From: an uncultured bacterium
GTDB taxonomy: Bacteria > Spirochaetota > UBA4802 > JAGODF01
Direction: 5' to 3'
Assembly (NCBI GenBank): GCA_937921485.1
Contig: CAKZSV010000016.1
Coordinates: forward strand, 334-64,333
DNA length: 64,000 bases
The position numbers were made by a program, and so were the translations under genes. The notes beneath the pieces are model-generated. The model was not told the origin of the DNA, ran no database searches, and was given only the letters and a program-made list of their open reading frames with translations. Shown in pieces: positions 17,301 to 38,529 of the stretch. The number at the start of each line of letters is the position of its first letter. The first letter of the stretch is position 1.

Positions 17301-17351
17301 TCTTTTCGTGCGATGCCATAATGGATAATTCACCTGATCTGGAGGATAATT

Positions 17352-22606: not shown

Positions 22607-22718
22607 GGGAACTTATAAAAACCATTTATAAAGATGTTCCCTTGTGGGCACAATATATAGGTAAAACCGCTTTCTTTGATGCTAGTTGTAAGGTTGAAAG
22701 CGGTTTTTAGAGGTGCCC
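22607..22718. mobile_element. MITE-like repeat, copy 1
   Basis: Terminal inverted repeats GGGAACTTATAAAAAC / GTTTTTAGAGGTGCCC and internal hairpin AAAACCGCTTTC...GAAAGCGGTTTT; homologous to 30578 and 38530. Confidence 0.8.
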
Positions 22719-22724
22719 ATCATT

Positions 22725-22764
22725 GTCGTAACGCTGTGCCCATAGTCGTAACGCTGTGCCCATA
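22725..22764. repeat. 20-bp tandem duplication
   Basis: GTCGTAACGCTGTGCCCATA occurs twice next to the MITE end. Confidence 0.85.
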
Positions 22765-22840
22765 ATTGATAAGATTCTCATCCGGTGCGATGCAAAATAT
22801 GCGCAGATGTAAGCGGCAGCAAATGATGTCAATTGCGCTA

Positions 22841-23569
22841 TTACGAACGCAGCATCATTATCGCGATGATCAGCAGCATGGTAATGACGATGCGTTTGAA
22901 TCGTTCCGCGTCGATGCGCGTATTGATGAAGTTCCCCGCGAACATGCCGGTAAAAATAATTGGAATGAGCATGCTCCACAGAAAAAGCACATCGGCAGTG
23001 TACAGTCCCCGCGCGGCATGGCCCGCACCGATGAGAAATGCTGAGGAAAGAAAAAATCCCTGAAGATTTGCTATCGTTCGGTCCTTATCCCATTGCTGAA
23101 GCGCGGCATGCACAATTACCGGCGGTCCGTTGATATTGAACGCAGCGCCAAGGCTGCCGGCAAGGAATCCGAAAACATACGACCACCTGCGGGATACCGG
23201 TTTTGCGGGAAGCAATCCCGCAAGCGAATACACAGAAAAAAGAATTATCAGCGAAGCAAGAATTTTTCGCAAGATTTGCTCATCCAGATAGGTGAGAATG
23301 AAAATGCCAAAAGGAACTCCCACCGCGGCGCTTGCCAGAAGCGGAATGAGTTCCCGCAGATTGACATGCTTTCGTTTGACAATAAAGAGCATGGCGGTAA
23401 GCGCCAGTCCGTTTAAAAGCACCAGAGGTGTGACGATGCGAAGCGGAAGCATAAAAGGAAGAATCGCCATCGATACAAGCGCCTGCCCGAAACCGGAAAC
23501 GCCCTGCACAAAGGACGCGAAAAGCACCACGAGGGCGATGATGATGTAGAGCACTGCTTCACCGGTCAT
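22841..23569 (-). CDS. TauE/SafE sulfonate/sulfite exporter
   Basis: SFVQGVSGFG and GAAFNINGPP motifs, about 8 TMs. Confidence 0.88.
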   Translation of the reverse strand: MTGEAVLYIIIALVVLFASFVQGVSGFGQALVSMAILPFMLPLRIVTPLVLLNGLALTAMLFIVKRKHVNLRELIPLLASAAVGVPFGIFILTYLDEQILRKILASLIILFSVYSLAGLLPAKPVSRRWSYVFGFLAGSLGAAFNINGPPVIVHAALQQWDKDRTIANLQGFFLSSAFLIGAGHAARGLYTADVLFLWSMLIPIIFTGMFAGNFINTRIDAERFKRIVITMLLIIAIMMLRS

Positions 23570-23777
23570 TGGGGGTTCCTGTTTGAAAAGCTGTGCAAGC
23601 GTTATTGTGCTGCAGCAAAATGTCAATGGTATTTCCGGTGCAGTTTCCACTGCGGGGAAATTGCTGGATGCCGATTAAAATGAAGTCGATGTGTAATCCG
23701 TTGCACATGGCCAGGAAATCTTATTGACACCCCGTGATGTTGGAATATTCCTTACGCATAAGAGGTGGCAGGAATAT

Positions 23778-24236
23778 ATGATTCATTTTGAACGCATACC
23801 CGATGATATTGACGCGCGTATTGAAGAACTCAAGCAGGCGCTCCTGCGCGATCCAAATATTGTATTTGCCTATCTCTTTGGGGGGTTGGCAAAGGGTGTG
23901 AAAAAGCCGTTGTCGGATGTTGACATTGCAGTGTTTGTGAACGACATGTCGAACCTTGCCGAATATACCATGAATCTCTTTTTAGATTTTTCAAATATTC
24001 TTCACACATCGGAAATAGATATCGTCATTTTGAATGTTGCGCCTGAAAGCATTGCAGGCCGTATTTTGCAGCATAAGAAGCTGTTAGTTGATAAAAAGCC
24101 TTTACAACGGCATCTGTACGAATCTGTCACATTGAGAAAATATTTTGATTTTGCAGTAAAAGAAAAACAGATACTCTACAGGAGGTACAAGATTGGTCGA
24201 TTCATCCCTCATTCTTCGCAAGATATCAGAACTTGA
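23778..24236 (+). CDS. MntA-like nucleotidyltransferase antitoxin
   Basis: AYLFGG...SDVDIAV; overlaps the HepT gene. Confidence 0.88.
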   Translation: MIHFERIPDDIDARIEELKQALLRDPNIVFAYLFGGLAKGVKKPLSDVDIAVFVNDMSNLAEYTMNLFLDFSNILHTSEIDIVILNVAPESIAGRILQHKKLLVDKKPLQRHLYESVTLRKYFDFAVKEKQILYRRYKIGRFIPHSSQDIRT

Positions 24237-24618
24237 AACGTATTATGTACAGATTAAAGAATTTAAGGATCTTACGTATGATGCCTATGTATCTGATTGG
24301 AAGACGCAGCGAATAGTTGAGCGAACATTACAGTTGATGATTGAGATGTGCGCTGATATAGCAAATCACATCATTTCAGATGCGGAATTGCGTACTCCGC
24401 AGACATATGCGGACACATTCAAGGTATTATTCGAAAATAAGATCATTGATGAAGCGCTGCGCGATGTAATGATTAAAATGGCGAAATTCCGTAATATCAT
24501 TGTACATCAGTATGAACGCGTGGACGCTGAAATAGTCATTGGCATTGTAAAAAAACACGTAGATGATGTGCTGCAGTACCGAAATGCCATTATGCAATAC
24601 ATTCAGGAGCGCGAATGA
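24193..24618 (+). CDS. HepT-like HEPN RNase toxin (DUF86)
   Basis: ERTLQ...FRNIIVHQY (Rx4HxY). Confidence 0.92.
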   Translation: MVDSSLILRKISELETYYVQIKEFKDLTYDAYVSDWKTQRIVERTLQLMIEMCADIANHIISDAELRTPQTYADTFKVLFENKIIDEALRDVMIKMAKFRNIIVHQYERVDAEIVIGIVKKHVDDVLQYRNAIMQYIQERE

Positions 24619-24676
24619 TGAAATTCTACGATAGCATCGCGCATCAGTATGAACGTACGCACGGTGAAATACTTTC

Positions 24677-25150
24677 TTACTTAAAATTCTTTTTCTCCAT
24701 TTCCCGAATCTCTTCGTAGCAATTTTTCAAGAATTTCTGCCATTCCTCTTCAAAGCCTTCGCCGAATTTCGTGGCAAGCCAGGCATCCACGATTTCCGCG
24801 GCGTGCTGTGGCGGAGTGAGCCACTCGGCAAGCACCAGCACGTTGGCATTGTTCACCGATGAAGCGCGCTTTCCTTCGAAGGTATTGGTGCAGTGCACGG
24901 CATGGACGCCGGGAAATTTGTTTGCCACGATGGCGCTTCCGGCGCCTGTTCCGCAGATGATGATGGCTTTCTCGTATGTTCCTTCCGAAACTGCCTTTGC
25001 CACATTGGCCGCGGCGATGTGATACGGAACGAATTCCCCGCCTTCCTTCATTCCCAGATCGTCAACCGTATGGCCTTTTTTCTCAAGGTGCGCAATCATT
25101 TCTTTTTTGAGTGCCAATCCTGCGCGCGTGCTTCCAATTGCAAATTTCAT
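24677..25150 (-). CDS. RpiB/LacAB family isomerase; putative 4-deoxy-4-sulfoerythrose isomerase (SqwI-like)
   Basis: ICGTGAG, ANKFPG, NNANVL. The specific function is inferred from context. Confidence 0.85.
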   Translation of the reverse strand: MKFAIGSTRAGLALKKEMIAHLEKKGHTVDDLGMKEGGEFVPYHIAAANVAKAVSEGTYEKAIIICGTGAGSAIVANKFPGVHAVHCTNTFEGKRASSVNNANVLVLAEWLTPPQHAAEIVDAWLATKFGEGFEEEWQKFLKNCYEEIREMEKKNFK

Positions 25151-25154
25151 ACTC

Positions 25155-26111
25155 TCACTCCTGAATTCCGTTTTTTCGCACAATTGAAGCTGCCGCTTCA
25201 ACGATGTGTGGTATGCCGAAGCCGTGCTTGTTGAACAGGTATTCCTCCGTGGCTACCTCGCCGAATTTATCGGGAACTCCCAGCCGCTTCACGCGCACGG
25301 GGTATTGCTCTGAGAGCACCTCGCAGATGGCGCCGCCAAGGCCTCCGATAATATTTTGATTTTCAACGGTCACCACCGCGCCGGTTTTCTTCGCCGATGC
25401 GATGATGGCCTTTTCATCGAGCGGCTTCACCGAAGGAAAGTGCAGCACCTCGGCGCTAATGCCTTTTTTCGAAAGCTCATCCGCGGCTTTCAATGCGAAC
25501 TGCGTCATGTAGCCGGTGGCGGCAATTGTCACATCCGTGCCTTCGCGAAGAAGCGCCGCTTTGCCGGGTTCGAACTGGTAGCCTTCATTGAAAATCTGCG
25601 GCACCACCGAACGTACGAGCTGCATGTAGGTGGGCTGTTTTGATTTTGCCATGAATTTCATCGCGCTGCGAAGTTCAAACGGATCGCAGGGGCTGTAGAC
25701 ATGCATGTTCGGCATCGCGCGCATGATGGCAAGATCCTGAAAGCACATGTGCGTACCGCCGTTTGGCCCCTGGGTGATGCCGGGGGCGGTACCCACAATC
25801 TTCACGTTTGTGTTGGCGTACGCCACGCTGATGGTAATCTGATCGTACACGCGGCGTGACGCGAAACAGGTAAAGCTTGCGCAGAAGGGAATTTTCCCCT
25901 CAACGGCCATGCCCGCGGCAATGCCAATCATGTTGGCTTCGGATACGCCCACGTTGATGAAATTCTTCGGATGCTTCTCGAGCACTGCCGGATTCGTTCC
26001 TGAGGCTTTCGATAAATCTGCTTCCAGGCAATACACATTGGGATTTTCTTCAATGAGTTCGTTTAAGGTGTGCGCGTACACAAGGCGCATTTCCATTTTT
26101 GCATAGTCCAT
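25155..26111 (-). CDS. Transketolase C-terminal subunit (SqwH-like)
   Basis: NVGVSEANM, GPNGGTH, SVKPLD. Confidence 0.93.
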   Translation of the reverse strand: MDYAKMEMRLVYAHTLNELIEENPNVYCLEADLSKASGTNPAVLEKHPKNFINVGVSEANMIGIAAGMAVEGKIPFCASFTCFASRRVYDQITISVAYANTNVKIVGTAPGITQGPNGGTHMCFQDLAIMRAMPNMHVYSPCDPFELRSAMKFMAKSKQPTYMQLVRSVVPQIFNEGYQFEPGKAALLREGTDVTIAATGYMTQFALKAADELSKKGISAEVLHFPSVKPLDEKAIIASAKKTGAVVTVENQNIIGGLGGAICEVLSEQYPVRVKRLGVPDKFGEVATEEYLFNKHGFGIPHIVEAAASIVRKNGIQE

Positions 26112-26113
26112 GA

Positions 26114-26977
26114 CTAATCCTCGCAATAATTAAGTTCGTGATCGTGCGGAATACCTTCAATGACTTTCCGGTAGGTGGCTTCATCGGGCACCTTGATGTT
26201 GTGGCTTGAAACCTGATTTTCGTACTGGCAATGGCACTTTGCTTTGATAGTGTGTGCGATGATCATCCTGGGTTTGCCTTTTACCTCGCTGGCGCGGTTG
26301 ATGGTTTCATATATCGCATGCCAATCGTGGCCGTCCATCTCAAACACTTCCCATCCGAAGGCGCGCCACTTATCGGCCAGCGGCTCGAGCGTCAGAACAT
26401 CATCAGTGCGCCCGTCGATCTGTAATTTATTATAATCGCAGATGGCGATAAGATTATCGAGCTTATGATGTCCCGCAAAAAGCGCGGCTTCCCAGATCTG
26501 CCCTTCGTTGCTCTCTCCGTCTCCAATGATGCAAAATACGCGGTGATTTTTACCGTCCTTTTTCGCGGCCACTGCCATGCCGATTGCACAGGAAAGGCCC
26601 TGGCCGAGAGAACCCGCGGTCATATCGATGCCCGGCGTCTGAATGCGGTCAACATGGCTGGGAAGTCTCGTGCCGTCTTTATTGAGCGTCCCGAGCCACG
26701 ATTTTGGAAAGAACCCTTTCAGTGCAAGTGCCACATAGAGCACCGGACCCGCGTGCCCTTTGGAAAGCACCAGACGGTCGCGCTCATCCCACAGCGGATT
26801 TTTCGGATCAGTTTTCATGATGCGGTAGTACAGGGTGATGATGACCTCGACGAGCGAAAGCGCGCCGCCCAGATGTCCCGAGCCTGCCTTGCAGATCATG
26901 TCGGTGATGATGAAACGGAAGTCCTTCGCCAGTTTTTCAAGTTCGGCTTTGCCGGGTGTTTCGTGTGATGAATTCAT
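26114..26977 (-). CDS. Transketolase N-terminal subunit (SqwG-like)
   Basis: GHLGG, LSKGH, GSLGQG, GDGE...N TPP motif. Confidence 0.93.
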   Translation of the reverse strand: MNSSHETPGKAELEKLAKDFRFIITDMICKAGSGHLGGALSLVEVIITLYYRIMKTDPKNPLWDERDRLVLSKGHAGPVLYVALALKGFFPKSWLGTLNKDGTRLPSHVDRIQTPGIDMTAGSLGQGLSCAIGMAVAAKKDGKNHRVFCIIGDGESNEGQIWEAALFAGHHKLDNLIAICDYNKLQIDGRTDDVLTLEPLADKWRAFGWEVFEMDGHDWHAIYETINRASEVKGKPRMIIAHTIKAKCHCQYENQVSSHNIKVPDEATYRKVIEGIPHDHELNYCED

Positions 26978-26989
26978 CAATGCCTCCAA

Positions 26990-28462
26990 TTAAATGATGT
27001 GAAGCGCGCCGCCTAAAAAATACACGGATAGCGCGACGCAGAGTGATGCCAGAAGCGTCATGAATACGCCCACCTTTGCCATGTCGGTGATGGTGAAATA
27101 CCCCGACGAGTAGGGAATGACATTGGTGGGCGTGGAACTTACTAAAATGAATGAAAGCGACGAGGTGATGCCGGCCGGAATGGCCAGAAGCGCGGGGCTG
27201 ATATTCGTCGTTTTCGCGAGCGCAATGAGAAGCGGCACCACGATGATGCCGGTAACTGTGTTGCTTGAAAACATCACCTTCATCAGCGCCACGCCGACAG
27301 TGATGATGAAGACGATCGCGAACGGATGCAGCGAACCGATGGAGCCGAAGAGCACGTAGGCAATCCATTGAGCTGCGCCGGTTTTATAAATGGCCATGCC
27401 GAGTGAAAGGCCAGTGACGATCAGCACGATGCCGCCCCAGCTTATTTCGCTTTCGGCCTGCTTCCAGCTAAGCACGTCGATTCCCGGCAGGAAAAAAAGG
27501 CAGGCGCAGGCGAACGCCACAAAGGAAATTTCGAGATAGTCAATCGTGCCGCCCGTCCAGCTTTTGATAAACGGCTCGCAGATCCACAGCGCAATGGTGA
27601 TGAAAAAAATTGAAATGACCATGAGTTCTTTTCTGGTGATGGAGCCCATGTCTTTTTTGCGCGCTTCGTACTCTTCGCGGGAGATGGAAAGCGCGATTTT
27701 TTCCGGCGGAAAAAAATAGAGCAAAAGCCACCAGGCGAATGGAATCATCATGAGCGCTGCGGGAAAGCCGATAAGGCTCCAGTCGAGAAACGTGAAATGA
27801 ATACCCGCTAAATCGCGCAAAAAACCCATGGTGAGGGGATTTGGCCCGCAGCCGGCGGGAGTGGCAATGCCGCCAATGAGCGGCCCCCATGCGGCGGCTA
27901 TCATCAGCGCCTTGCCGAAATTGCTTTTCAGCTTTTCTGCGCCCGCGTCGCGAAGAATGCCAAGGCCAAGCGGCAGAAGCATCGCAGCCACAGCCATGTC
28001 GGTAATCCATGCGGAAAGCAAAGCCCCCGCTGTTAGAAAGACGAGCACAATGAGCGAAGGGCGGTGGCCGAGTTTAAACAGCATGAAGGATGTGACGCGC
28101 CTCATGAGCGTGGTGGCATTGATTGCTGCAGAGAGAATGAGTACCCCGATAAAAAACAGCACGATGGAATTTCCGAAGCCGTCGGCCACCAGATTTTTAA
28201 ACGTGTCCACCTTTAAAATTGTAAGCAGCGCAAGCGAGATGAGTCCCGCGATGGGGAAGGGAACCGCTTCCGTGACCCAGAGGATGACCGTAAATGCCAT
28301 GACCGCAAGCGATGCTTTTCCCTTCGCGGTGAGCGCAATGGCCTGTTCCCCGGCCTGAACCGGCGATGCGTCGGGAAGAAACATAATAATTGCGAATGCG
28401 AGAATTGCGAGCATACAATATGCGTACCGCCGGTTTTCACGCCAGAATTGCGCGATGCTCAT
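26990..28462 (-). CDS. DASS/SLC13 family anion transporter
   Basis: WVTEAVP, GGIATPAG, SSNT and STPTN motifs; many TMs. Confidence 0.9.
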   Translation of the reverse strand: MSIAQFWRENRRYAYCMLAILAFAIIMFLPDASPVQAGEQAIALTAKGKASLAVMAFTVILWVTEAVPFPIAGLISLALLTILKVDTFKNLVADGFGNSIVLFFIGVLILSAAINATTLMRRVTSFMLFKLGHRPSLIVLVFLTAGALLSAWITDMAVAAMLLPLGLGILRDAGAEKLKSNFGKALMIAAAWGPLIGGIATPAGCGPNPLTMGFLRDLAGIHFTFLDWSLIGFPAALMMIPFAWWLLLYFFPPEKIALSISREEYEARKKDMGSITRKELMVISIFFITIALWICEPFIKSWTGGTIDYLEISFVAFACACLFFLPGIDVLSWKQAESEISWGGIVLIVTGLSLGMAIYKTGAAQWIAYVLFGSIGSLHPFAIVFIITVGVALMKVMFSSNTVTGIIVVPLLIALAKTTNISPALLAIPAGITSSLSFILVSSTPTNVIPYSSGYFTITDMAKVGVFMTLLASLCVALSVYFLGGALHII

Positions 28463-28465
28463 AGA

Positions 28466-30280
28466 TTAATCCTTCAATGAAAGTTTTCGAAGCGCTTCAT
28501 CGGTGGGAATGCCATTTTCATCCCAGCCGCGAAGCCTGTAGTAGCAATCGAGTTGCGCGCGCAGAGCTTCGTCCGGCACGTATCGTCCCTTCGCGGGGCC
28601 GTCGGGAATCGGTTCGTTCATCACGCGCGCGGGAAGCGTGTCGCGCTCACGGGAAACGCCGCGCGCAATATTGATACACCGTTCGAGCGTGTAGATGCGC
28701 GCGCCCGCTTGTGAAAGATCTTCTACGCTGAAATCCCATCCGGTGAGGAAGTTGAATGCCCCGGCAAGGGATTCGTTGATGAGCCTTCCAAAGCCGCGCT
28801 CCATGGTGAAGCGGCACATTACCAGAGAGTCGCCGAGCGCGGTGAAGTTCTGGCTTTCCACGCAGTATTTCGCGATTTCTTCCGCGCTCATTTCAAAGTC
28901 CGGCTGAGGATAGCGCGGGCGCGCGTCGTGATGGCTTCCGCCGCGGTTTGAGGTGGCATACGCCAATCCCATCGTGCGTATGCCGCGCGCGGAGTGCCCG
29001 GCGATTTCAAGGCCTTTTACCGAATAGAGATACTCGTGTGCGTTTTTGCCTATGTGCGCGGCCATCTTTTCCGAGCCAAGCGATAAAAGCTCACCAGCCC
29101 CGCGGCGGTAGGCGGTATCATTGATCAGGGATATAAGTGCCTCACCATTTCCGAAAAGCATCGTTGTGCCAAAGAGCTTTTCATCGCAAAGCCCTTTTTC
29201 AAGGCATTCCGCCGCGAACGCGAGCGTCACGCCCATGGAGATGGTATCAAGTCCGAGTTCGTCGCAGAGGGTATTTGCATTGAAAAGCGAAACGATGTCT
29301 GCATTATCGCACATGGTGGCCAGGGCGTAAATGCTTTCGAATTCGGGCATCTTCACATTCGTGCCTGCAAATCTTCCCGAGGGGACCATCACCAATTTGC
29401 CGCACGCAACGGGACAGAGGCGGCAGGCGATATTTTTTACTTTGAATTCGCGCGCCATGCGCTCGCCGCTTATCGCTTCCCACTCGGGGAAAACTTCGTA
29501 CTGATTATTCCTGGAAGCGAGCATCCCGCGGTCGTTAATGATTTTCACCAGCACCGGCGTGCCAAGCTCAATGAGTTCTTTCGTCTGGTCACGAAGTATG
29601 GGAAGGCGGCTTTTTAAAAATTCAGACAGGCGTTCGCGATGAGCGATGTCGGCTTTTTCGTTTCCGTTTACAACTATCGCTTTGAGGTTTTTTGAACCCA
29701 TGACCGCGCCCAGACCGAGCCTTCCGGCCGCACTGATGCGCGCTCCGCTCGCGATGACGGCCGCGAAAGGAACGAGATTTTCACCTGCCGGCCCAATCAC
29801 CGCGCATTCGATGCTGCTGCCTTCGCGTTCTTTCAGCGCCGCGATTGCTTTCGAGGTTTCCAGCCCCCAAAGGGTATCTGCTTCATGGAAGCTTGCGCCG
29901 CTTTCATCAATGCGCAGATAGACGCGTGAAGAAGCGTTACCGGTGATTGCGATTGCATCAAAACCGGTTGCTTTAAGCATGGACGCGAAGTTTCCGCCGA
30001 AGTTGGAATCGCCAAAGAGGCCGGTTTGGGGGGAGATTGCCGCCGCATGCGCCCTTCCGGAACCCCAGATGGGGGAACCGGTAAAGGGGCCGCTTGCAAA
30101 CACAAGGATGTTTTTTTCTGAGAAGGCATCATCGGCAGGCGATACTTCGCGGCCGATGATATCGGCAGCAAAGCCATTTCCGCCGATGAATTTCTTCGCG
30201 TACGCCTCGTCGAATTTTTCGATACGCGAAGATTGCGAAGAAAGGTCGATGCGCAGCATCTTTCCGAAATAGCCATTCAT
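28466..30280 (-). CDS. Aldehyde:ferredoxin oxidoreductase (W/Mo-bisPTT AOR family)
   Basis: IGPAGEN, GRLGLGAVMGSKNLKA, CRLCPVACGK, DELGLDTIS, DSLVMCRF, YYRLRGWD. Confidence 0.94.
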   Translation of the reverse strand: MNGYFGKMLRIDLSSQSSRIEKFDEAYAKKFIGGNGFAADIIGREVSPADDAFSEKNILVFASGPFTGSPIWGSGRAHAAAISPQTGLFGDSNFGGNFASMLKATGFDAIAITGNASSRVYLRIDESGASFHEADTLWGLETSKAIAALKEREGSSIECAVIGPAGENLVPFAAVIASGARISAAGRLGLGAVMGSKNLKAIVVNGNEKADIAHRERLSEFLKSRLPILRDQTKELIELGTPVLVKIINDRGMLASRNNQYEVFPEWEAISGERMAREFKVKNIACRLCPVACGKLVMVPSGRFAGTNVKMPEFESIYALATMCDNADIVSLFNANTLCDELGLDTISMGVTLAFAAECLEKGLCDEKLFGTTMLFGNGEALISLINDTAYRRGAGELLSLGSEKMAAHIGKNAHEYLYSVKGLEIAGHSARGIRTMGLAYATSNRGGSHHDARPRYPQPDFEMSAEEIAKYCVESQNFTALGDSLVMCRFTMERGFGRLINESLAGAFNFLTGWDFSVEDLSQAGARIYTLERCINIARGVSRERDTLPARVMNEPIPDGPAKGRYVPDEALRAQLDCYYRLRGWDENGIPTDEALRKLSLKD

Positions 30281-30306
30281 ATCAGTGAATCCCACATTGT
30301 GATGTC

Positions 30307-30335
30307 AATATAAATCCATAACGATTTATTGTCAA
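30307..30335 (-). promoter_or_regulatory. sigma70 promoter of the AOR-DASS-TK-RpiB operon with embedded operator
   Basis: TTGACA (30335-30330), 17 nt, TATATT (30312-30307). The motif TAAATCCATAACGATTTA lies at 30311-30328. Confidence 0.75.
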
Positions 30336-30577
30336 GGGTTTTATGATACTTTTTTTCATGGGCGGTTTTTTTCAATAAAAAAATGATGGATAGGTGAAAA
30401 ATGGATGATGTGGTGTGAGGGCAGGAGCATAGGTGCTTCTGGTATTCAATCCTTCCATGCTCCCGTTCGTACATTGTGTGATGCCGCATTGCAGAGCGCA
30501 TAACTGCGATGATTACATCTATCATATAGAAAAATCCTTCTGTTCGGATTAAAAATTATTGTCTGTTTCAAAATAAT

Positions 30578-30690
30578 GGGCACTTCTAAAAACCGCTTTC
30601 GTCATTAAAAATAGCATCATAGAAAGCGGTTTTTTCCCATACATTATGCTCAAAAGGGAACATCCTTTAAAACAGTTTTAAGAAGTTCCC
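30578..30690. mobile_element. MITE-like repeat, copy 2 (inverted relative to copy 1)
   Basis: GGGCACTTCTAAAAACCGCTTTC...GAAAGCGGTTTT...GGGAACATCC...TTAAGAAGTTCCC. Confidence 0.8.
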
Positions 30691-30717
30691 TTATAATTTA
30701 AATTTAACGGAGGGGAT

Positions 30718-30861
30718 ATGTTTAGTAATAAAAGTATTGTCGCGAGAGGATTTGTTTTTGCTCTGGTTTTCGTTTTTATCTTTGCTTTGGGATGCAAGAC
30801 ATTCAAGGACGTCGAGCGTGAATCAATACCCGTGAGACCGGCTTCATCAAACTCTAACTAA
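30718..30861 (+). CDS. Small lipoprotein (47 aa)
   Basis: GGAGGG RBS; MFSNKSIVARGFVFALVFVFIFALGCKTFKDVERESIPVRPASSNSN with ALGC lipobox. Below the ORF-track length cutoff. Confidence 0.7.
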   Translation: MFSNKSIVARGFVFALVFVFIFALGCKTFKDVERESIPVRPASSNSN

Positions 30862-30891
30862 AAAATTTATTTTCACGAGAGGAAATCTGAT

Positions 30892-31704
30892 ATGAAAAAT
30901 TATTCGAATTTTGTATGTTTCGCACTTATTTTGCTATTCTTTGTTGGGAATTGCAGTTTTACTCCTTCATCGCCCGTGTTGATCGTTGATAACAAACACG
31001 TGCAAGGCGGGAAAAATATTGTTATCAAAGTTGATTCAAAGCCAATTACGTATGATGGGACTACTGTTATAGGTGTACCTGGCGCAGGAAAGGAAACCGC
31101 TACGGCAGTAATATACCAGGATGCGACAGGTAAATTTGTGACAGAATACAGCAATACGAATCAAATTGTAAATAGTCACATAGAATGGGTTCAAGCAGCA
31201 AAAGATGCAAAGTATATCCGACTTGTGATATCACGAATGTTTTATTATAAGGACAATGTTTCTGAAATATTGAGGTATGCCTGCCTTTTGCCAACGCTCG
31301 GTTATTCATTTTTATTGTTTAATCCCGAGTCTTATTCTGATCATATATCTTTTGGGGAAGGCGGAGTAGGTGATGGTTCTGATATTACTCTTAATTTTGT
31401 ACTTAAAAAAGATTTCGATATCATGCTTACAGTAAGCAACATGGGTAACATGGAGTTAAAACAGCCCTTTATCATAAGCGATACTCTCCCGGATTATATG
31501 CTCTTTAAAAATGCCAAATACTATGCCAGCGGTGGAGTAGCAAAAGTGACTTATGATAACCACAAGATGGGAAACAATCAGAGCCTGGTTTTTAAGGTTT
31601 ATCCGAACGAATCAGGTTTTGGTCAATATCAGACTGTTCAAATAAAACTTACGATTAGTCCCGATCTTTCAAAATTTCTAAATGACTATAAGGTTAACAA
31701 TTAA
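30892..31704 (+). CDS. Putative lipoprotein with DUF11-like C-terminal Ig domain
   Basis: Signal peptide ending FVGNC; LTVSNMGN...IISDTLP motif; AT-rich. Confidence 0.7.
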   Translation: MKNYSNFVCFALILLFFVGNCSFTPSSPVLIVDNKHVQGGKNIVIKVDSKPITYDGTTVIGVPGAGKETATAVIYQDATGKFVTEYSNTNQIVNSHIEWVQAAKDAKYIRLVISRMFYYKDNVSEILRYACLLPTLGYSFLLFNPESYSDHISFGEGGVGDGSDITLNFVLKKDFDIMLTVSNMGNMELKQPFIISDTLPDYMLFKNAKYYASGGVAKVTYDNHKMGNNQSLVFKVYPNESGFGQYQTVQIKLTISPDLSKFLNDYKVNN

Positions 31705-31711
31705 TTCCTGC

Positions 31712-31750
31712 AAAGAGGGGACTTTGAAAATGAGAAGTCCCCTCTTTTTT
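31712..31750 (+). terminator. Intrinsic terminator
   Basis: AAAGAGGGGACTT...AAGTCCCCTCTTT stem followed by a T-run. Confidence 0.8.
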
Positions 31751-31823
31751 GTTGCTATATCATTGCCTTTAATAAAAAACATTATAGTACCCTCTAACCG
31801 CTTCCTTCCAACCCCAAAGCTGT

Positions 31824-32237
31824 TTACATCTCCGACAGCAATTTTTGCCTCGCCGATTCAATATGCCGCATCGCTTCCTGCGCGTGCATCAAAAGCTCCT
31901 TCGCGTCATCGGACGTGATGCTGTCGAAATCTCCGTAGTCGGCATCGGTGCGATGTGAAAGCAGATTTTTATATGTTTTGATTACTGATTGCGGCAAGAT
32001 GCCTTTTTTTATAAAATGCAGGCTCAGCATGGTGATGATGCCTTCATGCGTTTCGGGATTTGATCCTGCTAAAATGAGAAGGGCGCGTGCGGCGTTGAGC
32101 ACTGCATAATAGCTTCTGTTGATCGAAGTTCGGTATAATCCTCCGCTGAGCGTTTTTTCTGCATCGGAAATGAAACCATCGGCCTTATCCATCCGGACAT
32201 TGCTTAACTGCTTTTTTTCTTCGATTGAAAGCGTCAT
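31824..32237 (-). CDS. HEPN domain protein (UPF0332-like)
   Basis: NRSYYA...THEG...RTDADY. Confidence 0.9.
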   Translation of the reverse strand: MTLSIEEKKQLSNVRMDKADGFISDAEKTLSGGLYRTSINRSYYAVLNAARALLILAGSNPETHEGIITMLSLHFIKKGILPQSVIKTYKNLLSHRTDADYGDFDSITSDDAKELLMHAQEAMRHIESARQKLLSEM

Positions 32238-32557
32238 ACGGATATTCCCTCGCGTGTGATATTCTGATAGAAAGGCGTATTGCAGGCGCGTTCCTGTGCA
32301 AAAGCGCCTGCGTCTTTTATAAGTGGCGAAAAAGAAAGTCCGCGCTTCTCTTCGATATCAACGATGATGTCAATAATTTTCTGCTGTTTCTGCGGCGTTC
32401 GATTGCGGACAATAATCAGTATATCGAAATCCGATGAATCTGAGAAATCTCCGCGCACTCTCGAACCGAACGCAACGATCTGTTCAATATCATCGCCAAA
32501 TTCTTTGCGAAGCGATCGGGAAATTTCTTTCAGAGCGTTTCGTTCATGGGTGAACAT
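32234..32557 (-). CDS. MNT nucleotidyltransferase
   Basis: FGSRVRGD...SDFDIL; 4-bp overlap with the HEPN gene. Confidence 0.9.
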   Translation of the reverse strand: MFTHERNALKEISRSLRKEFGDDIEQIVAFGSRVRGDFSDSSDFDILIIVRNRTPQKQQKIIDIIVDIEEKRGLSFSPLIKDAGAFAQERACNTPFYQNITREGISV

Positions 32558-32641
32558 GCCCCATGTATGCCGTACATTGCAGGGCATGTCAAGGATATAA
32601 CGATTTTGCACGTGAATAATTATCGATTTGTTTCCCGATAG

Positions 32642-34633
32642 CTACATATCCCTCACCTTCTCAAACACCACCGAGAAATCCGAGCCGCTTCGGTAAAACA
32701 CCGGCGGATAGCCGATGGGCGCATCAACAGTGTGCGTGCCTGCCGGATATGCTTTGCCGCTCCAGAGATGAATCCACACATCATCGGGCAGTATCACCTT
32801 CCAGCGCCGCTTCCCTTTGCGCAGCACCGGCGCCACGAGCAGATCGCGGCCGTAGAGATATTCGTATTGCACATTCAGAAACTTCGCATCGTCATAATGC
32901 ATAAAAATGGGACGTACAGGCGGAAGACCACTCTCTTGATATTCGTTTGAAAGATGCATATGATAATCCCGCAGTGCGACAAAGATGCGGGTGAAGCGCG
33001 CAAAATGCGCAAGTGTTGCCGCATCGGAATCGAATTGCCAGTTGGAGGCGGGGCGATTTCCTTCGTGTGTGCGCATTGTCTGCGTGAAGGCAGCCTGTTC
33101 GGTCCATCGCATGAACAGCTCTTTGGAGCGGCGAATCCACCCGACGGTGGTATAGCCGCCGATGTCCGAATGATGATACCCGATGCCGCACATCCCGAGC
33201 GAAAGCGCTGCGGGAATCACGGTTGCAAGCCCGTCGTCGAAGCTCCAGTTGACGAGCTGATCGCCCGCCCAGATGCTTGCGGCGTACCGCGAACTTCCCG
33301 TGAAACCTGCGCGCATAAAATAAAAAATGTCGTTTTCTTTTTGTGCTTCGCGCACCGCCTCGAAGTTTGCTTTTGCCCACATGGCAGGATAGCGGTTATG
33401 ATACCGCTCGGCATTTTCTTTTGAAAAGAGAATTGCATCGGGGGGAAGCGCTTCGCCGAAATCGGCCATCCATCCAGAAAGGCCAAGCGCGATCATCTCC
33501 TGTGTGATGACGCTTTTATACCAGGTGCATGCCGAGGGATTGGTGAAATCGATCATGCCGGCGAAAAATTCGCCGAAATCTTCGGTGTAGGTGCTTCCAT
33601 CGGCGCGCAGCACTAAAAACCCGCGGTCAGCGGCTTCGCGGAAAAGCGGCGCGTCAGTTGCAAGGTAGGGATTGATGTATCCCAGAAAACGGATGCCGCG
33701 CTCGCGGTATTCCTTAATCTTTTCATCCAGCTTTGGGTACAGCGCTTTATTCCATTGCCAGTTCCAGAACAGCCGCTTGCCGAATGAGGTCATGCGCATG
33801 CCTTCCCAGTCCTGTGCCCACACCGCGGCAATTTTCGCACCGGCGGAAATCGCGTTTTTCAATTTCGCGTCGATTACCCCGGTGCCGCCCTGCATGCCGA
33901 GTATTGCGCCGCCATAGACCCAGTGCGGAAGCGGCCGTTGCCGGCCGACAAGCGCGCTCAGTCGCTGCAAAAGCGCCGGACGGGAAGGAGCAGTTCCAAG
34001 GATGATATTTTCCGGAATATGCCGGAAATGCAGAATGTGATAATCTTTTCCGGTGAAATCGAACTCCGCGTAGGCGGACTCATCTGAGTGGCAGAAATAC
34101 TGCGCTGAAGAGATGAAGGTCGGCTGATTGAAATACGTGGTGTACCATGTACCGCCTGCGTCGGCCTTGAGATTTGCCAGAAACGTGATGAGGTCTTTGC
34201 CGCGGCCGACGCCCTGTTCCTGCACGAAGATGGGAACGTTTTTTCCCTTTAGATTAAAATACGTATATTGCTCGCCGCAGCCATAAATTCCTTCGCCTGC
34301 TTCTCCGCACAGTTTCAGCCAGAAGCGGTTAATTTCCGCGTCGGCGCAGGAAAAGCGGATTTCCAGCGTGCCGTTTTTTTCTTCGGCAGTCATGGTGAGA
34401 ATATCTTCAAATGAAAGGACCACCCGCGTGGGGGTTGATTCTTTCACCAAAAATTGCGCAAGCGGCTTTTTTTCGCGCACGCTATCGCGGATTTTAAAAT
34501 GGCTATAGCGCATGCGGTATTCCGCCGTACCTTTGCCTGATGAAATGCAGGGATTTTTTTCATTGTGAATAAGAAATGTTCTGCCCTGAAAGCCGAGTTC
34601 AAAGCCGTGATTGTGCGCATTGAATTCAATCAT
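32642..34633 (-). CDS. yihQ: Sulfoquinovosidase, GH31 (YihQ-type)
   Basis: EQGVGR, WAQDWEGMRMTSFGKRLFWNWQW (Q/R/W sulfonate-binding residues), GWMADFGE nucleophile motif, WAGDQ, HSDIGGYT. Confidence 0.9.
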   Translation of the reverse strand: MIEFNAHNHGFELGFQGRTFLIHNEKNPCISSGKGTAEYRMRYSHFKIRDSVREKKPLAQFLVKESTPTRVVLSFEDILTMTAEEKNGTLEIRFSCADAEINRFWLKLCGEAGEGIYGCGEQYTYFNLKGKNVPIFVQEQGVGRGKDLITFLANLKADAGGTWYTTYFNQPTFISSAQYFCHSDESAYAEFDFTGKDYHILHFRHIPENIILGTAPSRPALLQRLSALVGRQRPLPHWVYGGAILGMQGGTGVIDAKLKNAISAGAKIAAVWAQDWEGMRMTSFGKRLFWNWQWNKALYPKLDEKIKEYRERGIRFLGYINPYLATDAPLFREAADRGFLVLRADGSTYTEDFGEFFAGMIDFTNPSACTWYKSVITQEMIALGLSGWMADFGEALPPDAILFSKENAERYHNRYPAMWAKANFEAVREAQKENDIFYFMRAGFTGSSRYAASIWAGDQLVNWSFDDGLATVIPAALSLGMCGIGYHHSDIGGYTTVGWIRRSKELFMRWTEQAAFTQTMRTHEGNRPASNWQFDSDAATLAHFARFTRIFVALRDYHMHLSNEYQESGLPPVRPIFMHYDDAKFLNVQYEYLYGRDLLVAPVLRKGKRRWKVILPDDVWIHLWSGKAYPAGTHTVDAPIGYPPVFYRSGSDFSVVFEKVRDM

Positions 34634-34644
34634 CGATAATCCTT

Positions 34645-35961
34645 TTATTGAATAATTTTCCAGCCGTTTATGCGCCCGAATATTTCCAGAGGACGAATGA
34701 AATCGCCATACGCCATCGACGCGTGATGTGCGATGCCATTGTACACGACTTTTTCGAGCACTTCTTTTACCGGAGCGTCAAATGTTACCTTTACGTAGGT
34801 TCCCCGTAGTTTTTTGTCCATCGGAATTCCATGTGCCCGCTGTAAAAAAATGCGCTGGGCATCTCCGGAGTTATCGAAGCGCAGGATGGAGATATCGCCG
34901 GTTTTCAGCACGAAATCGGCAGTGACGCCTTTCCCGCCGGCGAAATAGGTATCGAGCGAGCGTACGCATTTCCCGTCCCAGAGATTGCAGGGCGCCACGC
35001 CGCAGTGCCACAGTAGCGCGCTATCTTCATCGAAATCGACCTGGGAAAAATCGAAAAGATACGGCGTTTCCGCACCAAGCGCTTTGTGCGCCAGCATTGA
35101 AAGTGCACCCTCTACATCGCCTTCGCAGGCTAAAATTGCGCTTTCGGACTGCACCAGCGACATCGCCGCGCAGGGAGAGGTGCCGTAGCGTGCGGCAAAC
35201 TCCGGCCAACAGCGAATGGCAAGCGCCGAAAGGTTTTCCTGTTTCATAAATGCGTCGATGCGCGCAGCCAGTATCGCAGTTTTTTTTGCCTGTTCTTCGG
35301 TGATGCCGCTCGTATCGAAGGTCTTTTGCACAATATCATTCCAGCGCGATACCTCACTTTCGGAAACAGGCTGTTCGTACACATCCAAAAGCTCGTAGTG
35401 GTCGATGAGCACGCCGAAGCGCGCGTATGCTTCAAGGTCGCGCACGCTCAGATTGAAAAAACCGTGTGCGCGGAATCCCGCAATGCCGATATGCGCCGAC
35501 GAAAGCGCTTTTCGCACGCGAATCGCATCGACCCAGTCGGTATCTATTGAGCGCGACACAATGGCATGATAATTGCGCACGCCTGCTTTGTAGAGGTTGG
35601 ACGCATTCAAATTCACGCCGCAGACGGAATTGAGCCGGATTTTCCCCCCATCGTAGGGAAGCTCGGGAAGTCCCCACAGAAGCACGGGCTGGGGTAGAGC
35701 TTTCTTTAGTTCAAGCAGCAGATGGCCAAGGTGGAATGTGCCGCTTATGCAGACCAGCCCATCGATGTGTTTTTCTGAAAGGAAACGCGCAGCCTTTTTT
35801 GCATCGTCAATTTCGATGACAAGCTCCGGCCAGATGGCGCATTCCGCGCTGGGTAATGTTGCAAGGTCTTTTTTTATCCGGTTGAAAATCTCGCCCGCGG
35901 CATGGTAGTCGAAGGTTTTACGTGCCAGGCAGACGATGCCAAGCGTGATGTGCTGTTTCAT
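34645..35961 (-). CDS. L-fucose/L-arabinose isomerase family; putative SQ isomerase (SqvD-like)
   Basis: RCWPEF, ACEGD, WHCG, GIAHH; lies between the SQase and the GPH transporter. Confidence 0.85.
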   Translation of the reverse strand: MKQHITLGIVCLARKTFDYHAAGEIFNRIKKDLATLPSAECAIWPELVIEIDDAKKAARFLSEKHIDGLVCISGTFHLGHLLLELKKALPQPVLLWGLPELPYDGGKIRLNSVCGVNLNASNLYKAGVRNYHAIVSRSIDTDWVDAIRVRKALSSAHIGIAGFRAHGFFNLSVRDLEAYARFGVLIDHYELLDVYEQPVSESEVSRWNDIVQKTFDTSGITEEQAKKTAILAARIDAFMKQENLSALAIRCWPEFAARYGTSPCAAMSLVQSESAILACEGDVEGALSMLAHKALGAETPYLFDFSQVDFDEDSALLWHCGVAPCNLWDGKCVRSLDTYFAGGKGVTADFVLKTGDISILRFDNSGDAQRIFLQRAHGIPMDKKLRGTYVKVTFDAPVKEVLEKVVYNGIAHHASMAYGDFIRPLEIFGRINGWKIIQ

Positions 35962-35974
35962 GGTGGTACCTCGT

Positions 35975-37456
35975 TTATGTATTCATCAAGCGTTCGTATG
36001 ATTGTCCCGTAAGCTCTTCGCATACGGCACGGGTGCGGCTGTCAACCTCGCTTTTCTTTCCGCCGCTTTTCAGCCGCTCGATTTCTGCGATGAGCACGGC
36101 ATGCGTTTCGGGCGTGATATTGAATTTCCGCGCGATGATGATGCCGAGTACAATGAGCAGAAGCGGCAGGGAGAAGAAAAGGATGCGGAGCCAGAAAAGC
36201 GTGGTTTCCGCCTGCGGCTGGTTGATAGAGCGGCTGATACCGTCGATAATCTCAATAACAGGCTTTTGATAGCCGATGATGTCGAGCATTATGCCGATGA
36301 AGAAAATTGTCAGCGCGTTGACGATTTTACGGATGAAGGTCATCGCGCCCGCGTAGGAGCCCGCGCGCTTTTTGCCGGTAATCATCTCATCGACATCGGT
36401 CACCGAAGGAAGAATTGCCCAGGGCACCATGGTGCCGGCCGAAAGTCCGATGCCCATGAGTCCCGATACGGCAATGATGAGGTAAGGCGATGTTTCTTTG
36501 TTGAAAAATGCAGTGAGGATAAGCCCAACTCCCCAGATGCACAGTCCGACGATGTAGGCAAATCCCTTGCCTTTTTTATTGGAGATGTAAACATATACCG
36601 GAAGCATTGAAACCTGGGCCAGAAGCATCGCGCCGACGCAGGTGGCAAAGAGCTTTTCATTGCCAATATAATACGTGAGATAATAAATAAAAAGCGCCAT
36701 GAGTACATCCATCGCCATATACGAAGCGATGTACATTCCCATGTGCAGGCGAAACGAGCGATTGTGTCGCATGGAAAAAAGTTCCGAGAAAAAGCCGGAA
36801 ATAGTAAGCGAAGGAGCAGACTCGCAGGATTCCATCTCCCATGTGCCGTGGAAGACGATGATCCAGGGAATCATGTAAAAGATGCCGAAGATGACCGACA
36901 TCACCAGAAAGCCTTCGGCTTTATTGTGCGCGAAATAGGTATCGATGATAAGTTTGGGCACCACAGCGCTTACCAGCGATGAAAACTGAGAGCACATCAT
37001 GCGCGCGCCAGAGAGCCGCATCCGGCTTTTGTAATCGCAGGTCATTTCGGCATTCAAAGCGGAATAGGGCACCATGACCATGGTGAACGCGGTGCGGAAA
37101 AGAATGAAGGCGGTTACATAATACAGGAAAGAAAGATAGATGTTATCGAACCGCACGGCCACCCACAGCATGATAAACGTAAGCGCTACCGGCAGCATGC
37201 CTGCGAGAAAATAAATTCTGCGACGGCCGAAGCGGCTTTTCGTGCGGTCGGAAAGATAGCCCATCAGCGGGTCGGAAATGGCATCCCATATTTTTCCGGG
37301 AAGCATCACCAGGCCTGCAAGCGCGGGAGGAAGCCCGACAATGTCGGTGAGAAAGAACATGAAAAGAAGGCTTATGATGAGAAATGAACCGCCGCCGTAA
37401 AAATCGCCCACGCCGTACGCTATGAGATGATACCATCGAAGCGGTCTGTTATCCAT
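35975..37456 (-). CDS. GPH (MelB-like) MFS sugar-glycoside symporter; putative SQ/SQ-glycerol importer
   Basis: AYGVGD, WDAISDPLMGYLSDRT..RFGRRR, VPYSAL. ATG 8 nt after GGAGG. Confidence 0.92.
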   Translation of the reverse strand: MDNRPLRWYHLIAYGVGDFYGGGSFLIISLLFMFFLTDIVGLPPALAGLVMLPGKIWDAISDPLMGYLSDRTKSRFGRRRIYFLAGMLPVALTFIMLWVAVRFDNIYLSFLYYVTAFILFRTAFTMVMVPYSALNAEMTCDYKSRMRLSGARMMCSQFSSLVSAVVPKLIIDTYFAHNKAEGFLVMSVIFGIFYMIPWIIVFHGTWEMESCESAPSLTISGFFSELFSMRHNRSFRLHMGMYIASYMAMDVLMALFIYYLTYYIGNEKLFATCVGAMLLAQVSMLPVYVYISNKKGKGFAYIVGLCIWGVGLILTAFFNKETSPYLIIAVSGLMGIGLSAGTMVPWAILPSVTDVDEMITGKKRAGSYAGAMTFIRKIVNALTIFFIGIMLDIIGYQKPVIEIIDGISRSINQPQAETTLFWLRILFFSLPLLLIVLGIIIARKFNITPETHAVLIAEIERLKSGGKKSEVDSRTRAVCEELTGQSYERLMNT

Positions 37457-37528
37457 GTACACGACCTCCTTTTGGATTTTATCTGGATACTATATCATCA
37501 ACCCATAACCCGTGTGAAGCATAAAACG

Positions 37529-37558
37529 CATATAAATTGATAACGATTTAAATGTCAA
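37529..37558 (-). promoter_or_regulatory. Promoter of the MFS-isomerase-SQase operon with embedded operator
   Basis: TTGACA at 37558-37553; the motif TAAATTGATAACGATTTA lies at 37533-37550; TATAT-type -10. Confidence 0.72.
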
Positions 37559-37580
37559 GGGTTATTTTGCGGGTTTTGGG

Positions 37581-38523: not shown

Positions 38524-38529
38524 TAACAT

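Follow-up and report, generated by a model that had tools for sequence, protein, structure and literature searches.

Sulfoquinovose is produced at approximately 10 billion tonnes per year, according to the accessible part of the literature, and the short sulfonate given off by the organisms that degrade it determines both the next consumers and the amount of sulfide formed. The primary papers on the two described variants of its breakdown through transketolase (sulfo-TK) are reportedly those of Liu et al. (2021, ACS Catal) and, for the oxidative variant, Chu et al. (2023, AEM). The accessible sections of the sources on this route, including PMC9594981, give sulfoacetaldehyde as the product of the second transketolase step, and describe two endings, either a reduction of the SqwF/IsfD type or the pairing of SqwD with SqwKL, both of which are linked to NAD(H) (PMC12890257, PMC11659671, PMC9594981, PMC13436972). 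Only these two are listed in the available text of two reviews from 2026 and a paper from 2024, in literature to July 2026. Here we describe a locus in a 64,000 nt stretch of contig C16 of an uncultured, spirochaete-like bacterium (source genome G000); this stretch is termed the window, and coordinates are positions within it. The locus is probably a complete gene set for the breakdown of sulfoquinovose by sulfo-TK, with an aldehyde:ferredoxin oxidoreductase (AOR) as an undescribed third ending.

In the pathway proposed, a GPH symporter would import sulfoquinovose or its glyceride, a YihQ-type enzyme would free sulfoquinovose, and an SftI/SqvD-like isomerase would convert it to sulfofructose. 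A split transketolase would then pass a C2 ketol unit to glyceraldehyde-3-phosphate, leaving sulfoerythrose, which an RpiB-like isomerase would turn into sulfoerythrulose; a second cut by the transketolase would give sulfoacetaldehyde. The AOR, a tungsto- or molybdopterin and [4Fe-4S] enzyme, would oxidise sulfoacetaldehyde directly to sulfoacetate with the formation of reduced ferredoxin, in place of both the NADH-dependent reduction to isethionate by SqwF and the coenzyme A (CoA)-dependent oxidation by SqwD and SqwKL, with its ATP. Sulfoacetate would be exported by a co-transcribed DASS transporter, and a TauE protein may export it too, or may carry a second product, whilst the reduced ferredoxin would be re-oxidised by Rnf or [NiFe] hydrogenases encoded elsewhere in G000. 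The substrate and the metal of the AOR, which way sulfoacetate is transported, and where the electrons on ferredoxin go are all predictions. That the oxidation of sulfoacetaldehyde to sulfoacetate by the AOR is the main ending of this pathway seems to us rather probable, a reading strengthened by the conserved synteny, by the failure to find the known endings, and by the independent links of the AOR to DASS and aminotransferase genes.

The locus resembles the reductive sulfo-TK system of Clostridium sp. MSTE9 (SqvD, SqwGH, SqwI, SqwF and SqwE), as far as the accessible description of that system extends, in having a sulfoquinovosidase, a candidate isomerase, a split transketolase like SqwGH by family, a PF02502 protein, TauE and the predicted intermediate sulfoacetaldehyde; the strictly anaerobic setting is also shared, and locus L147 is a spirochaete example of this variant (L numbers denote fetched loci, and G numbers genomes). 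However, there is no PF00465 reductase on the window's contig, which instead carries the AOR and DASS genes, and the predicted product is sulfoacetate rather than isethionate, with electrons passing to ferredoxin rather than being drawn from NADH. The oxidative variant of Acholeplasma sp., in the available account of which SqwD is a CoA-acylating dehydrogenase and SqwKL an ADP-forming ligase, has the same product as that predicted here. Nevertheless, the AOR route would be a single CoA-independent step rather than two, would form no substrate-level ATP, would use low-potential ferredoxin where the oxidative variant uses NADH, and would need a tungsten or molybdenum pterin; furthermore, no homologue of SqwD, SqwK or SqwL was found in G000. 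Direct, CoA-independent oxidation of sulfoacetaldehyde followed by export occurs in Neptuniibacter caesariensis, which converts taurine to sulfoacetate using the NAD-dependent sulfoacetaldehyde dehydrogenase SafD and the DUF81 exporter SafE, a relative by family of the TauE/SafE protein of the window. That system differs in employing an Aldedh enzyme rather than an AOR, in using NAD+ rather than ferredoxin, in its aerobic marine host and in having taurine as its source.

The AOR itself is like that of Pyrococcus furiosus (PDB 1aor) and the single-subunit bacterial enzymes 9mqx and 9g7j in its two Pfam domains, its length, its [4Fe-4S] cysteines, its glutamate and histidine, and its lack of AorA/AorC partners, but it belongs to a distinct clade and lies inside a sugar-sulfonate operon. 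We know of no characterised AOR that has been tried on sulfonated aldehydes. A full-text search of the literature, outside which lay the figures and supplements of the primary papers, found nothing linking aldehyde ferredoxin oxidoreductase with sulfoacetaldehyde, and nothing relevant joining sulfoquinovose or sulfoacetate with AOR; among the papers mentioning both sulfoacetaldehyde and tungsten is PMC8667426, in the available part of which tungsten is a microscope cathode and a method reference. Hence the statement in a preliminary description of this DNA, that no AOR-terminated variant of sulfo-TK was known, holds for the searchable literature, the reviews giving two endings in their accessible text.

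The known terminal enzymes SqwF, SqwD and SqwKL, which the preliminary description had reported missing from the window, are indeed absent from it, and there is no match to PF00465 (Fe-ADH) or PF00171 (Aldedh) anywhere on contig C16, although matches exist elsewhere in G000, an assembly of 3.15 Mb in 84 contigs that is 84.7% complete. Both canonical endings nevertheless exist in the phylum, in clusters which look like the published variants. L149 has the N-terminal and C-terminal halves of a transketolase (TKN and TKC) followed by RpiB, an Aldedh protein, succinyl-CoA-ligase-like beta and alpha subunits and DASS, with a ROK regulator and a GH31 gene beside them, whilst L147 has the order TKN-TKC-RpiB-Fe-ADH-TauE, and L164 contains Fe-ADH, Aldedh, ligase beta and alpha, and DASS genes. 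When the SqwD-, SqwK-, SqwL- and SqwF-like proteins of L149 and L147 were compared with G000 by tblastn (E <= 1e-8), no match was obtained. The SqwD-like query, run against 101 genomes of the order, retrieved one orthologue of 64% identity and nine other sequences of 37-39%, in frames of 565-903 aa, with no match in the window's genus (four genomes including G000) or in 13 sister-family genomes with sulfo-TK clusters; the SqwF-like query found generic Fe-ADHs of at most 38% identity, apart from one orthologue at 48%. Searching the remainder of this 84.7% complete genome for sqwF and sqwD, a check put forward in the preliminary description, therefore yielded nothing by tblastn and only weak, generic Fe-ADH matches by HMMER. 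In the sister family, ten loci have the arrangement GPH-isomerase-YihQ, and then a metallo-beta-lactamase-fold gene-DASS-TKN-TKC-RpiB. The metallo-beta-lactamase-fold gene encodes approximately 334 aa and lies directly 5' of DASS (for instance L133:7409-8413 and L136:7454-8455).

The association of the AOR with transketolase genes is conserved beyond the window. Two metagenome-assembled genomes with AORs 79% and 93% identical to that of the window were found in a scan of named-species genomes, and, of 401 genomes from the phylum, 33 had an AOR match at E <= 1e-100, with 19 holding a copy at least 49% identical. Loci were fetched with up to 10 kb either side of the AOR and compared with the window's proteins, leaving out L003-L021, which are shorter copies of loci fetched at greater length later on. 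L001, L002 and L033, from the window's genus or near it (AOR identity 74-93%), share the order AOR-DASS-TKN-TKC, followed by RpiB and TauE where the contig continues, as in L002. This order is also found in L035 and L050, from a genus of another family, despite identities of 54-55% for the AOR, 62-63% for DASS and 69-72% for the transketolase; in this second genus, the sulfoquinovosidase, GPH and isomerase genes share the contig at a distance of 14 kb, or else are carried by a different one. The AOR operon of L035 (3162-7190) is preceded by two genes resembling the D component of 2-hydroxyglutaryl-CoA dehydratase and by a GMC oxidoreductase gene, with no evident link to the pathway. In one relative, G340, there is a single TGA within the TKN frame (C35:29782-30603) and a single TAA within a second AOR copy, which lies beside an aminotransferase (C18:41818-43632); these in-frame stops may be sequencing errors, decay or recoding.

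Metagenome contigs were scanned with an alignment of 12 AOR sequences, giving 80 loci of 46-55% identity. Transketolase adjoins the AOR in two of them, L058 (AOR-DASS-TKN) and L101 (AOR-TKN-TKC, lacking DASS), and the other neighbours were DASS in 12, the combination of a short-chain dehydrogenase/reductase (SDR), an acetolactate-synthase-like thiamine pyrophosphate (TPP) enzyme and DASS in eight, DUF2889 in three and a class-III aminotransferase in two. Trees of the AORs were built with FastTree (118 rows) and by a short IQ-TREE search without a mixture model (51 rows), omitting L051 and L052 as duplicates of L022 and L027 and dropping high-scoring segment pairs below 450 aa. Seven of the eight transketolase-linked AORs fall in one clade (support of 94 from FastTree and 99* from IQ-TREE), which is shared by the AORs linked to aminotransferase, SDR/TPP and DUF2889 genes. 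As the AOR of L101 lies outside this supported clade, adjacency to transketolase is present in at least two AOR lineages. At the level of genomes, TKN orthologues of at least 65% identity (65-95%) are present in 17 of the 401, and 15 of these 17 also have an AOR of the clade at 49% or more, compared with four of the 384 genomes without a TKN orthologue; counted by genus, the AOR is found in four of five transketolase-positive genera. These co-occurrence counts are descriptive, since the hits are related to one another and are not independent samples.

Within the operon, no product other than the AOR would be predicted to take up the sulfoacetaldehyde. The DASS gene, 3 nt after the AOR in the window, is the commonest neighbour of the AOR clade (16 of 100 loci). 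Among the clusters with canonical endings, DASS follows SqwD-, SqwK- and SqwL-like genes in L149 and L164, and is 47-50% identical to that of the window, but is not found at the Fe-ADH/TauE locus L147, there being one or two loci of each kind. In the accessible text of PMC10413351, SauI of Bilophila wadsworthia, a sodium:sulfate symporter-family protein whose gene accompanies those of SauCD and SauS, is proposed to be a sulfoacetate carrier. It shares its transporter family with the window's DASS, a likeness by family only, along with a linkage to enzymes of sulfoacetate and sulfoacetaldehyde; however, it is a proposed importer serving sulfoacetate respiration, whereas the DASS of the window is predicted to export. 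The context of DASS thus points to sulfoacetate, and its designation as a putative sulfoacetate carrier, already made in the preliminary description, gains support from both the SqwD/SqwKL-type loci and the SauI proposal.

A separate association is with class-III aminotransferases, which adjoin members of the AOR clade in L041, L046, L048, L072 and L083. In L046 the order is AOR-DASS-aminotransferase, with a DASS 63% identical to that of the window, and in L048 and L083 a pyridoxal phosphate (PLP) decarboxylase gene precedes the aminotransferase. Among solved structures the aminotransferase is closest to taurine:2-oxoglutarate aminotransferase 6jix, which scores 309 bits, the next best reaching 268. 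Taurine is transaminated to sulfoacetaldehyde, and this would be the only metabolite that the aminotransferase and transketolase routes have in common. An 803 aa open reading frame near the AOR of L046, suspected of encoding a glycyl-radical enzyme, proved on scanning to be a Ser/Thr kinase. There is also a recurrent module in which SDR, acetolactate-synthase-like TPP enzyme and DASS genes accompany an AOR of the clade and a TetR regulator gene, a BASS transporter gene being present in some cases (L057, L061, L062, L064, L069, L071, L075 and L090, and also L034 and L049); this could conceivably represent a C3-sulfonate or sulfoacetate route. Contig C32 of G000 (L158:711-5616) carries an SDR gene, a TPP enzyme gene, a 475 aa frame of no family and a TetR gene, without an AOR.

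Families were assigned from Pfam and NCBIfam profile scores, with bits compared to the cut-offs of the models. The GH31 enzyme is by every test applied a sulfoquinovosidase of the YihQ type, as it had been named on first description. Besides exceeding the cut-off of its model (887 bits against 553), it scores 754 bits against the solved enzyme 8r56 and 742 bits against E. coli YihQ (5aed), and is identical to the latter at the positions aligned to R301, W304, Y508, D405 and D472. The last two we take to be the catalytic residues of E. coli YihQ. The sulfonate pocket, formed in the E. coli enzyme by R301, W304 and Y508 (PMC8006165, available in part), is therefore kept. The isomerase is matched to the NF048012 SftI model at E 1e-55, residues 10-430 aligning to positions 7-434 of 443, although its 189 bits are below the 700-bit equivalog cut-off; its gene always adjoins GH31 in the relatives. 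The GPH symporter is 95% identical to that in L002, and 52-64% identical to those in the sulfo-TK clusters of other families.

The transketolase of the locus is distinct from two other split transketolases of G000, to which it is 30-46% identical, and its TKN is 52-55% identical to the transketolases of the canonical-looking spirochaete loci L147 and L149. A housekeeping RpiB paralogue on contig C9 is 42% identical to the RpiB of the locus. The coexistence of these other copies in G000 suggests that the transketolase and RpiB of the locus are dedicated ones. SqwI belongs to PF02502, as given in the accessible part of PMC9594981, and the two transketolase halves and the PF02502 isomerase fall into the families to which SqwGH and SqwI are assigned, a likeness by family and not to characterised sequences. 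The TauE gene is kept after RpiB in L002, L035 and L050, and its product shares 25% identity with the L147 TauE.

The AOR looks intact. Its best solved relatives score 361-393 bits, a range that includes 9mqx and 9g7j and is headed by 1aor from P. furiosus (393 bits over residues 6-607), and it is closer to this enzyme than to FOR, WOR5 or GAPOR, the GAPOR model giving 28 bits. C291, C294, C298, C494, E320 and H455 align to C288, C291, C295, C494, E313 and H448 of 1aor, and are invariant in the 12-member clade alignment; the cysteines, in a CxxCxxxC...C arrangement, are presumably the [4Fe-4S] ligands, and the glutamate and histidine presumably part of the metal site. Identities are 46-55% within the clade and approximately 32-40% to the other AORs sampled; G000 has four AOR paralogues at around 32%. 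What sets the whole wider clade (101 rows) apart from 17 distant AORs is R186, K315, H456, D457, R459, R495 and R500, to which a narrower clade adds W77, H83, N264, Y462 and R545. Several of the clade-wide substitutions surround the catalytic histidine, in the motif GGSHHDARP, and the extra cationic residues beside it would suit an anionic aldehyde. A family scan found no AorA/AorC-type partner genes in the operon. Elsewhere, G000 encodes RnfC (531 bits, cut-off 246), [NiFe]-hydrogenase large subunits and small 2x[4Fe-4S] frames. The search for tungsten and molybdenum cofactor genes suggested at the outset had a mixed outcome, in that MoeA was found but ModA was not; there are four PBP_like_2 proteins, the matches to which do not separate phosphate from tungstate binding. 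Use of xylulose-5-phosphate by a phosphoketolase, which was considered as a redox-neutral explanation for an oxidative ending, was rejected, as no XFP was present and the only signal was a cross-match on transketolase.

A number of observations weigh against the AOR being the ending of the pathway. No tested neighbour of the AOR is present in 61 of the 80 metagenome loci, and the gene lies beside transketolase in only two of these 80 and in 5 of 22 genome loci, most orthologues not being beside sulfoquinovose genes. The proposed co-occurrence of this AOR clade with sulfo-TK genes is consequently upheld for an operon shared by two genera from separate families and by metagenome contigs, but not for the bulk of the orthologues, which are unlinked. 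Two genomes, G150 and G361, have the transketolase orthologue and no AOR of the clade at E <= 1e-100. The sulfo-TK clusters of the sister family show no terminal enzyme in the stretches fetched (10 genomes), and in 10 sister-family genomes the AOR orthologue is found far from the sulfo-TK cluster, beside DUF2889 and thiamine-biosynthesis genes. The cationic residues R186, K315, R459, R495 and R500 are common to the whole 101-row clade, beyond its sulfonate-linked members, and the aminotransferase barely reaches, or misses, an uninformative subfamily model, such that GABA (gamma-aminobutyrate) or beta-alanine would fit the same pattern of aminotransferase and AOR genes. Neither an [FeFe] hydrogenase, a phosphoketolase nor ModA was found in the searches of G000, whilst the absences from this genome are provisional because it is 84.7% complete. 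Moreover, as AORs are broad in substrate range, according to the accessible literature, adjacency does not fix the physiological substrate.

This breadth would also suit a reductive ending, in which an unlinked Fe-ADH or SDR makes isethionate for export by TauE, and the AOR is a safety valve or redox side branch. A TauE gene, from the exporter family of the SqwF (isethionate) variant, is indeed kept at the end of the locus, and generic Fe-ADH and SDR genes elsewhere could reduce sulfoacetaldehyde: there are four Fe-ADH genes and several SDRs, among them that on C32, in G000, which also has five glycyl-radical enzymes. Two of the Fe-ADHs weakly match the SqwF-like query by HMMER (best E 4.9e-24), with no match by tblastn, and we have treated them as probable generic paralogues. 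However, no reductase gene is in or near the operon at any AOR-type locus, whereas L147 keeps Fe-ADH and TauE together; the AOR is promoter-proximal and kept across two families, and the stretches fetched for the sister-family clusters contain DASS without any TauE match. We therefore regard a reductive ending as unlikely. It would be more improbable still that the AOR acts on another aldehyde, such as 4-deoxy-4-sulfoerythrose (giving sulfo-erythronate), glyceraldehyde-3-phosphate or glycolaldehyde. Sulfoerythrose and glyceraldehyde-3-phosphate are aldehydes of the pathway, as its accessible descriptions show, and the additional arginines and lysine of the clade would suit any anionic aldehyde; against this, the RpiB-like isomerase that would pass sulfoerythrose onward is kept in the same operon, the score of 28 bits is low for a GAPOR, and C4 sulfosugars do not explain the members of the clade linked to aminotransferases.

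The AOR and DASS might alternatively operate in reverse, importing sulfoacetate and using ferredoxin to reduce it to sulfoacetaldehyde, which would either be desulfonated or serve to dispose of electrons, in which case the proximity to transketolase would reflect shared regulation of sulfonate genes. Carriers of the SauI type are proposed importers, and AORs reduce acids in other anaerobes, in the accessible parts of the literature on each, and the eight metagenome loci combining AOR, DASS and SDR encode a TPP enzyme distantly like Xsc (225-234 bits). None of the TPP enzymes examined reaches the 620-bit cut-off of the NCBIfam model named for Xsc, though, and sulfoacetaldehyde is a product in the transketolase operon, with no consumer in the locus. 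Nor could an isethionate lyase be assigned among the five glycyl-radical enzymes of G000, as none exceeds any NCBIfam equivalog cut-off, and such a reversal appears very improbable. As for the adjacency having arisen by chance, with a general aldehyde-detoxifying AOR in a spot prone to rearrangement, the locus is interrupted by two toxin-antitoxin-like pairs, an orphan open reading frame and repeats, its variable parts differ in a relative with a 93% identical AOR, and there are four other AOR paralogues in G000. Yet the gaps following the AOR and DASS genes are 3 and 0 nt, the order is unchanged in another family at 54-55% AOR identity, the second AOR lineage represented by L101 has the same adjacency, and the co-occurrence of AOR and TKN among genomes is strong, all of which makes chance scarcely credible.

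Beyond oxidation of sulfoacetaldehyde by the AOR in the sulfo-TK pathway, a more general and distinctly tentative suggestion is that AOR and DASS could form a portable cassette of anaerobes for converting sulfoacetaldehyde to sulfoacetate and exporting it. This might be plugged into sulfoquinovose routes, taurine-type aminotransferase routes, with the PLP decarboxylase upstream in places, and possibly C3-sulfonate routes through the SDR and TPP enzymes; we would sooner doubt than accept it at present.

Genes for GPH, isomerase, GH31, AOR, DASS, split transketolase, RpiB and TauE are all present on the minus strand where the preliminary description had placed them, as found from the list of open reading frames and by family scans (Table 1). 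Its portrayal of them as one minus-strand series is right as regards strand, but they do not form a single operon, plus-strand genes breaking the series twice. The spacings between successive genes from AOR through DASS, TKN and TKC to RpiB are 3, 0, -13 and -47 nt, and the best promoter-like site of the region ends 12 nt 5' of the annotated AOR start; the gene order, tight gaps and upstream site agree with the AOR having been described as the first gene of the transketolase operon. Such sites are consensus hexamer matches only, scored over a 15.7 kb region. These matches would fit at least two transcription units, GPH-isomerase-YihQ(-MNT-HEPN) and AOR-DASS-TKN-TKC-RpiB, with TauE apart. The true start of the AOR is possibly the ATG at 30280. 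An 82 aa open reading frame overlapping the AOR start (30277-30525) was discarded, being a mere translation of repeat A.

Table 1. Features of the sulfoquinovose locus, in window coordinates.
Feature	Position	Strand	Evidence or remarks
GPH-family (MFS_2) symporter, candidate importer of sulfoquinovose or sulfoquinovosyl-glycerol	35975-37462	-	PF13347 241 bits; TIGR00792 219 bits (cut-off 231)
SqvD/SftI-like sulfoquinovose isomerase candidate, 438 aa	34645-35961	-	NF048012 SftI 189 bits (cut-off 700); no Pfam match
YihQ-type sulfoquinovosidase, GH31	32642-34633	-	NF007746 887 bits (cut-off 553)
MNT/HEPN toxin-antitoxin-like pair, insertion outside pathway	MNT 32234-32611, HEPN 31824-32237	-	Family scan
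270 aa open reading frame, insertion	30892-31704	+	No Pfam or NCBIfam match; stretch of 40% GC
Terminator-like hairpin, 14 bp stem	31712-31747		After the 270 aa open reading frame
Intergenic repeats	A 30430-30525, B 30572-30700		Genome-wide copies by blastn
AOR-family aldehyde:ferredoxin oxidoreductase, proposed sulfoacetaldehyde oxidase	28466-30295	-	AFOR_N 231 bits; AFOR_C 390 bits
DASS (Na_sulph_symp) anion transporter, proposed sulfoacetate exporter	26990-28462	-	PF00939 175 bits; TIGR00785 228 bits (cut-off 199)
TKN, SqwG-like	26114-26989	-	Transketolase_N 185 bits
TKC, SqwH-like	25155-26126	-	Transket_pyr and Transketolase_C
RpiB/LacAB-family isomerase, SqwI-like (predicted sulfoerythrose to sulfoerythrulose)	24677-25201	-	PF02502 128 bits
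Polbeta-nucleotidyltransferase/HepT toxin-antitoxin pair, insertion	23724-24618	+	Family scan
TauE/SafE-family exporter, SqwE-like	22841-23650	-	PF01925 105 bits
Promoter-like site before AOR	30307-30335	-	TTGACA, 17 nt spacer, TATATT; 11/12 hexamer matches, best of region
Promoter-like site before GPH	37489-37518	-	10/12 hexamer matches and TG extension; second-best minus-strand site

The repeats are frequent in this genome, with approximately 38 blastn matches for repeat A and approximately 105 for repeat B, on 58 of the 84 contigs of G000. Repeat B has a fold of two hairpins (z -3.8), and no Rfam match was found in 22500-38800. Further repeat copies lie at approximately 22603-22724 and 38537-38645, such that copies of repeat B both bracket and interrupt the sulfoquinovose locus. 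The MNT/HEPN pair is kept in L002, the relative with 93% identity, although the genes after the pair differ there, and a gene for an AAA_14/DUF4143 ATPase occupies the place of the window's Polbeta/HepT pair. Both toxin-antitoxin-like insertions are at joints between pathway modules, the counterparts in L002 being at 5053-7493 and 13454-14755, and these joints are hot spots for small mobile cargo. The glycyl-radical enzyme genes of G000, four full-length and one partial, are on contigs C63, C22, C38, C2 and C24 (L153-L157); one is fused to its activase, and another, on C63, has an AOR paralogue around 5 kb away. A further AOR paralogue, on C74, lies between two Fe-ADH genes. It may be that every radical enzyme that forms an aldehyde is served by a separate AOR.

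The remainder of the window is chromosomal housekeeping, including RF-2, Mur ligases and FtsA, except for a galactoside block (10549-18338), 4.5 kb from the sulfoquinovose locus, which encodes a GH42 beta-galactosidase, a GH31/melibiase-like enzyme, a galactokinase, a DUF6937/DUF6938 protein and a UDP-sugar epimerase. The organism may use galactolipid head groups in addition to those of sulfolipid.

If the AOR does oxidise sulfoacetaldehyde, the transketolase route would have a third ending, one that is linked to ferredoxin, free of CoA and dependent on a pterin, and this would be the first tie between the tungsten-enzyme family and organosulfonates. The energy and redox balance of the pathway would change, with no substrate-level ATP and with low-potential electrons available for Rnf or hydrogen, and the turnover of sulfoquinovose in sulfidic sediments and caves would depend on the supply of tungsten or molybdenum. 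The AOR clade together with a SauI-like DASS would serve as an annotation marker for sulfoacetate formation. Were the AOR and DASS genes in addition a portable cassette, tungsten or molybdenum pterin enzymes and ferredoxin would have a general role, hitherto overlooked, in the cycling of organosulfonates by anaerobes, and sulfoacetate would be a commoner anaerobic end product than is now assumed.

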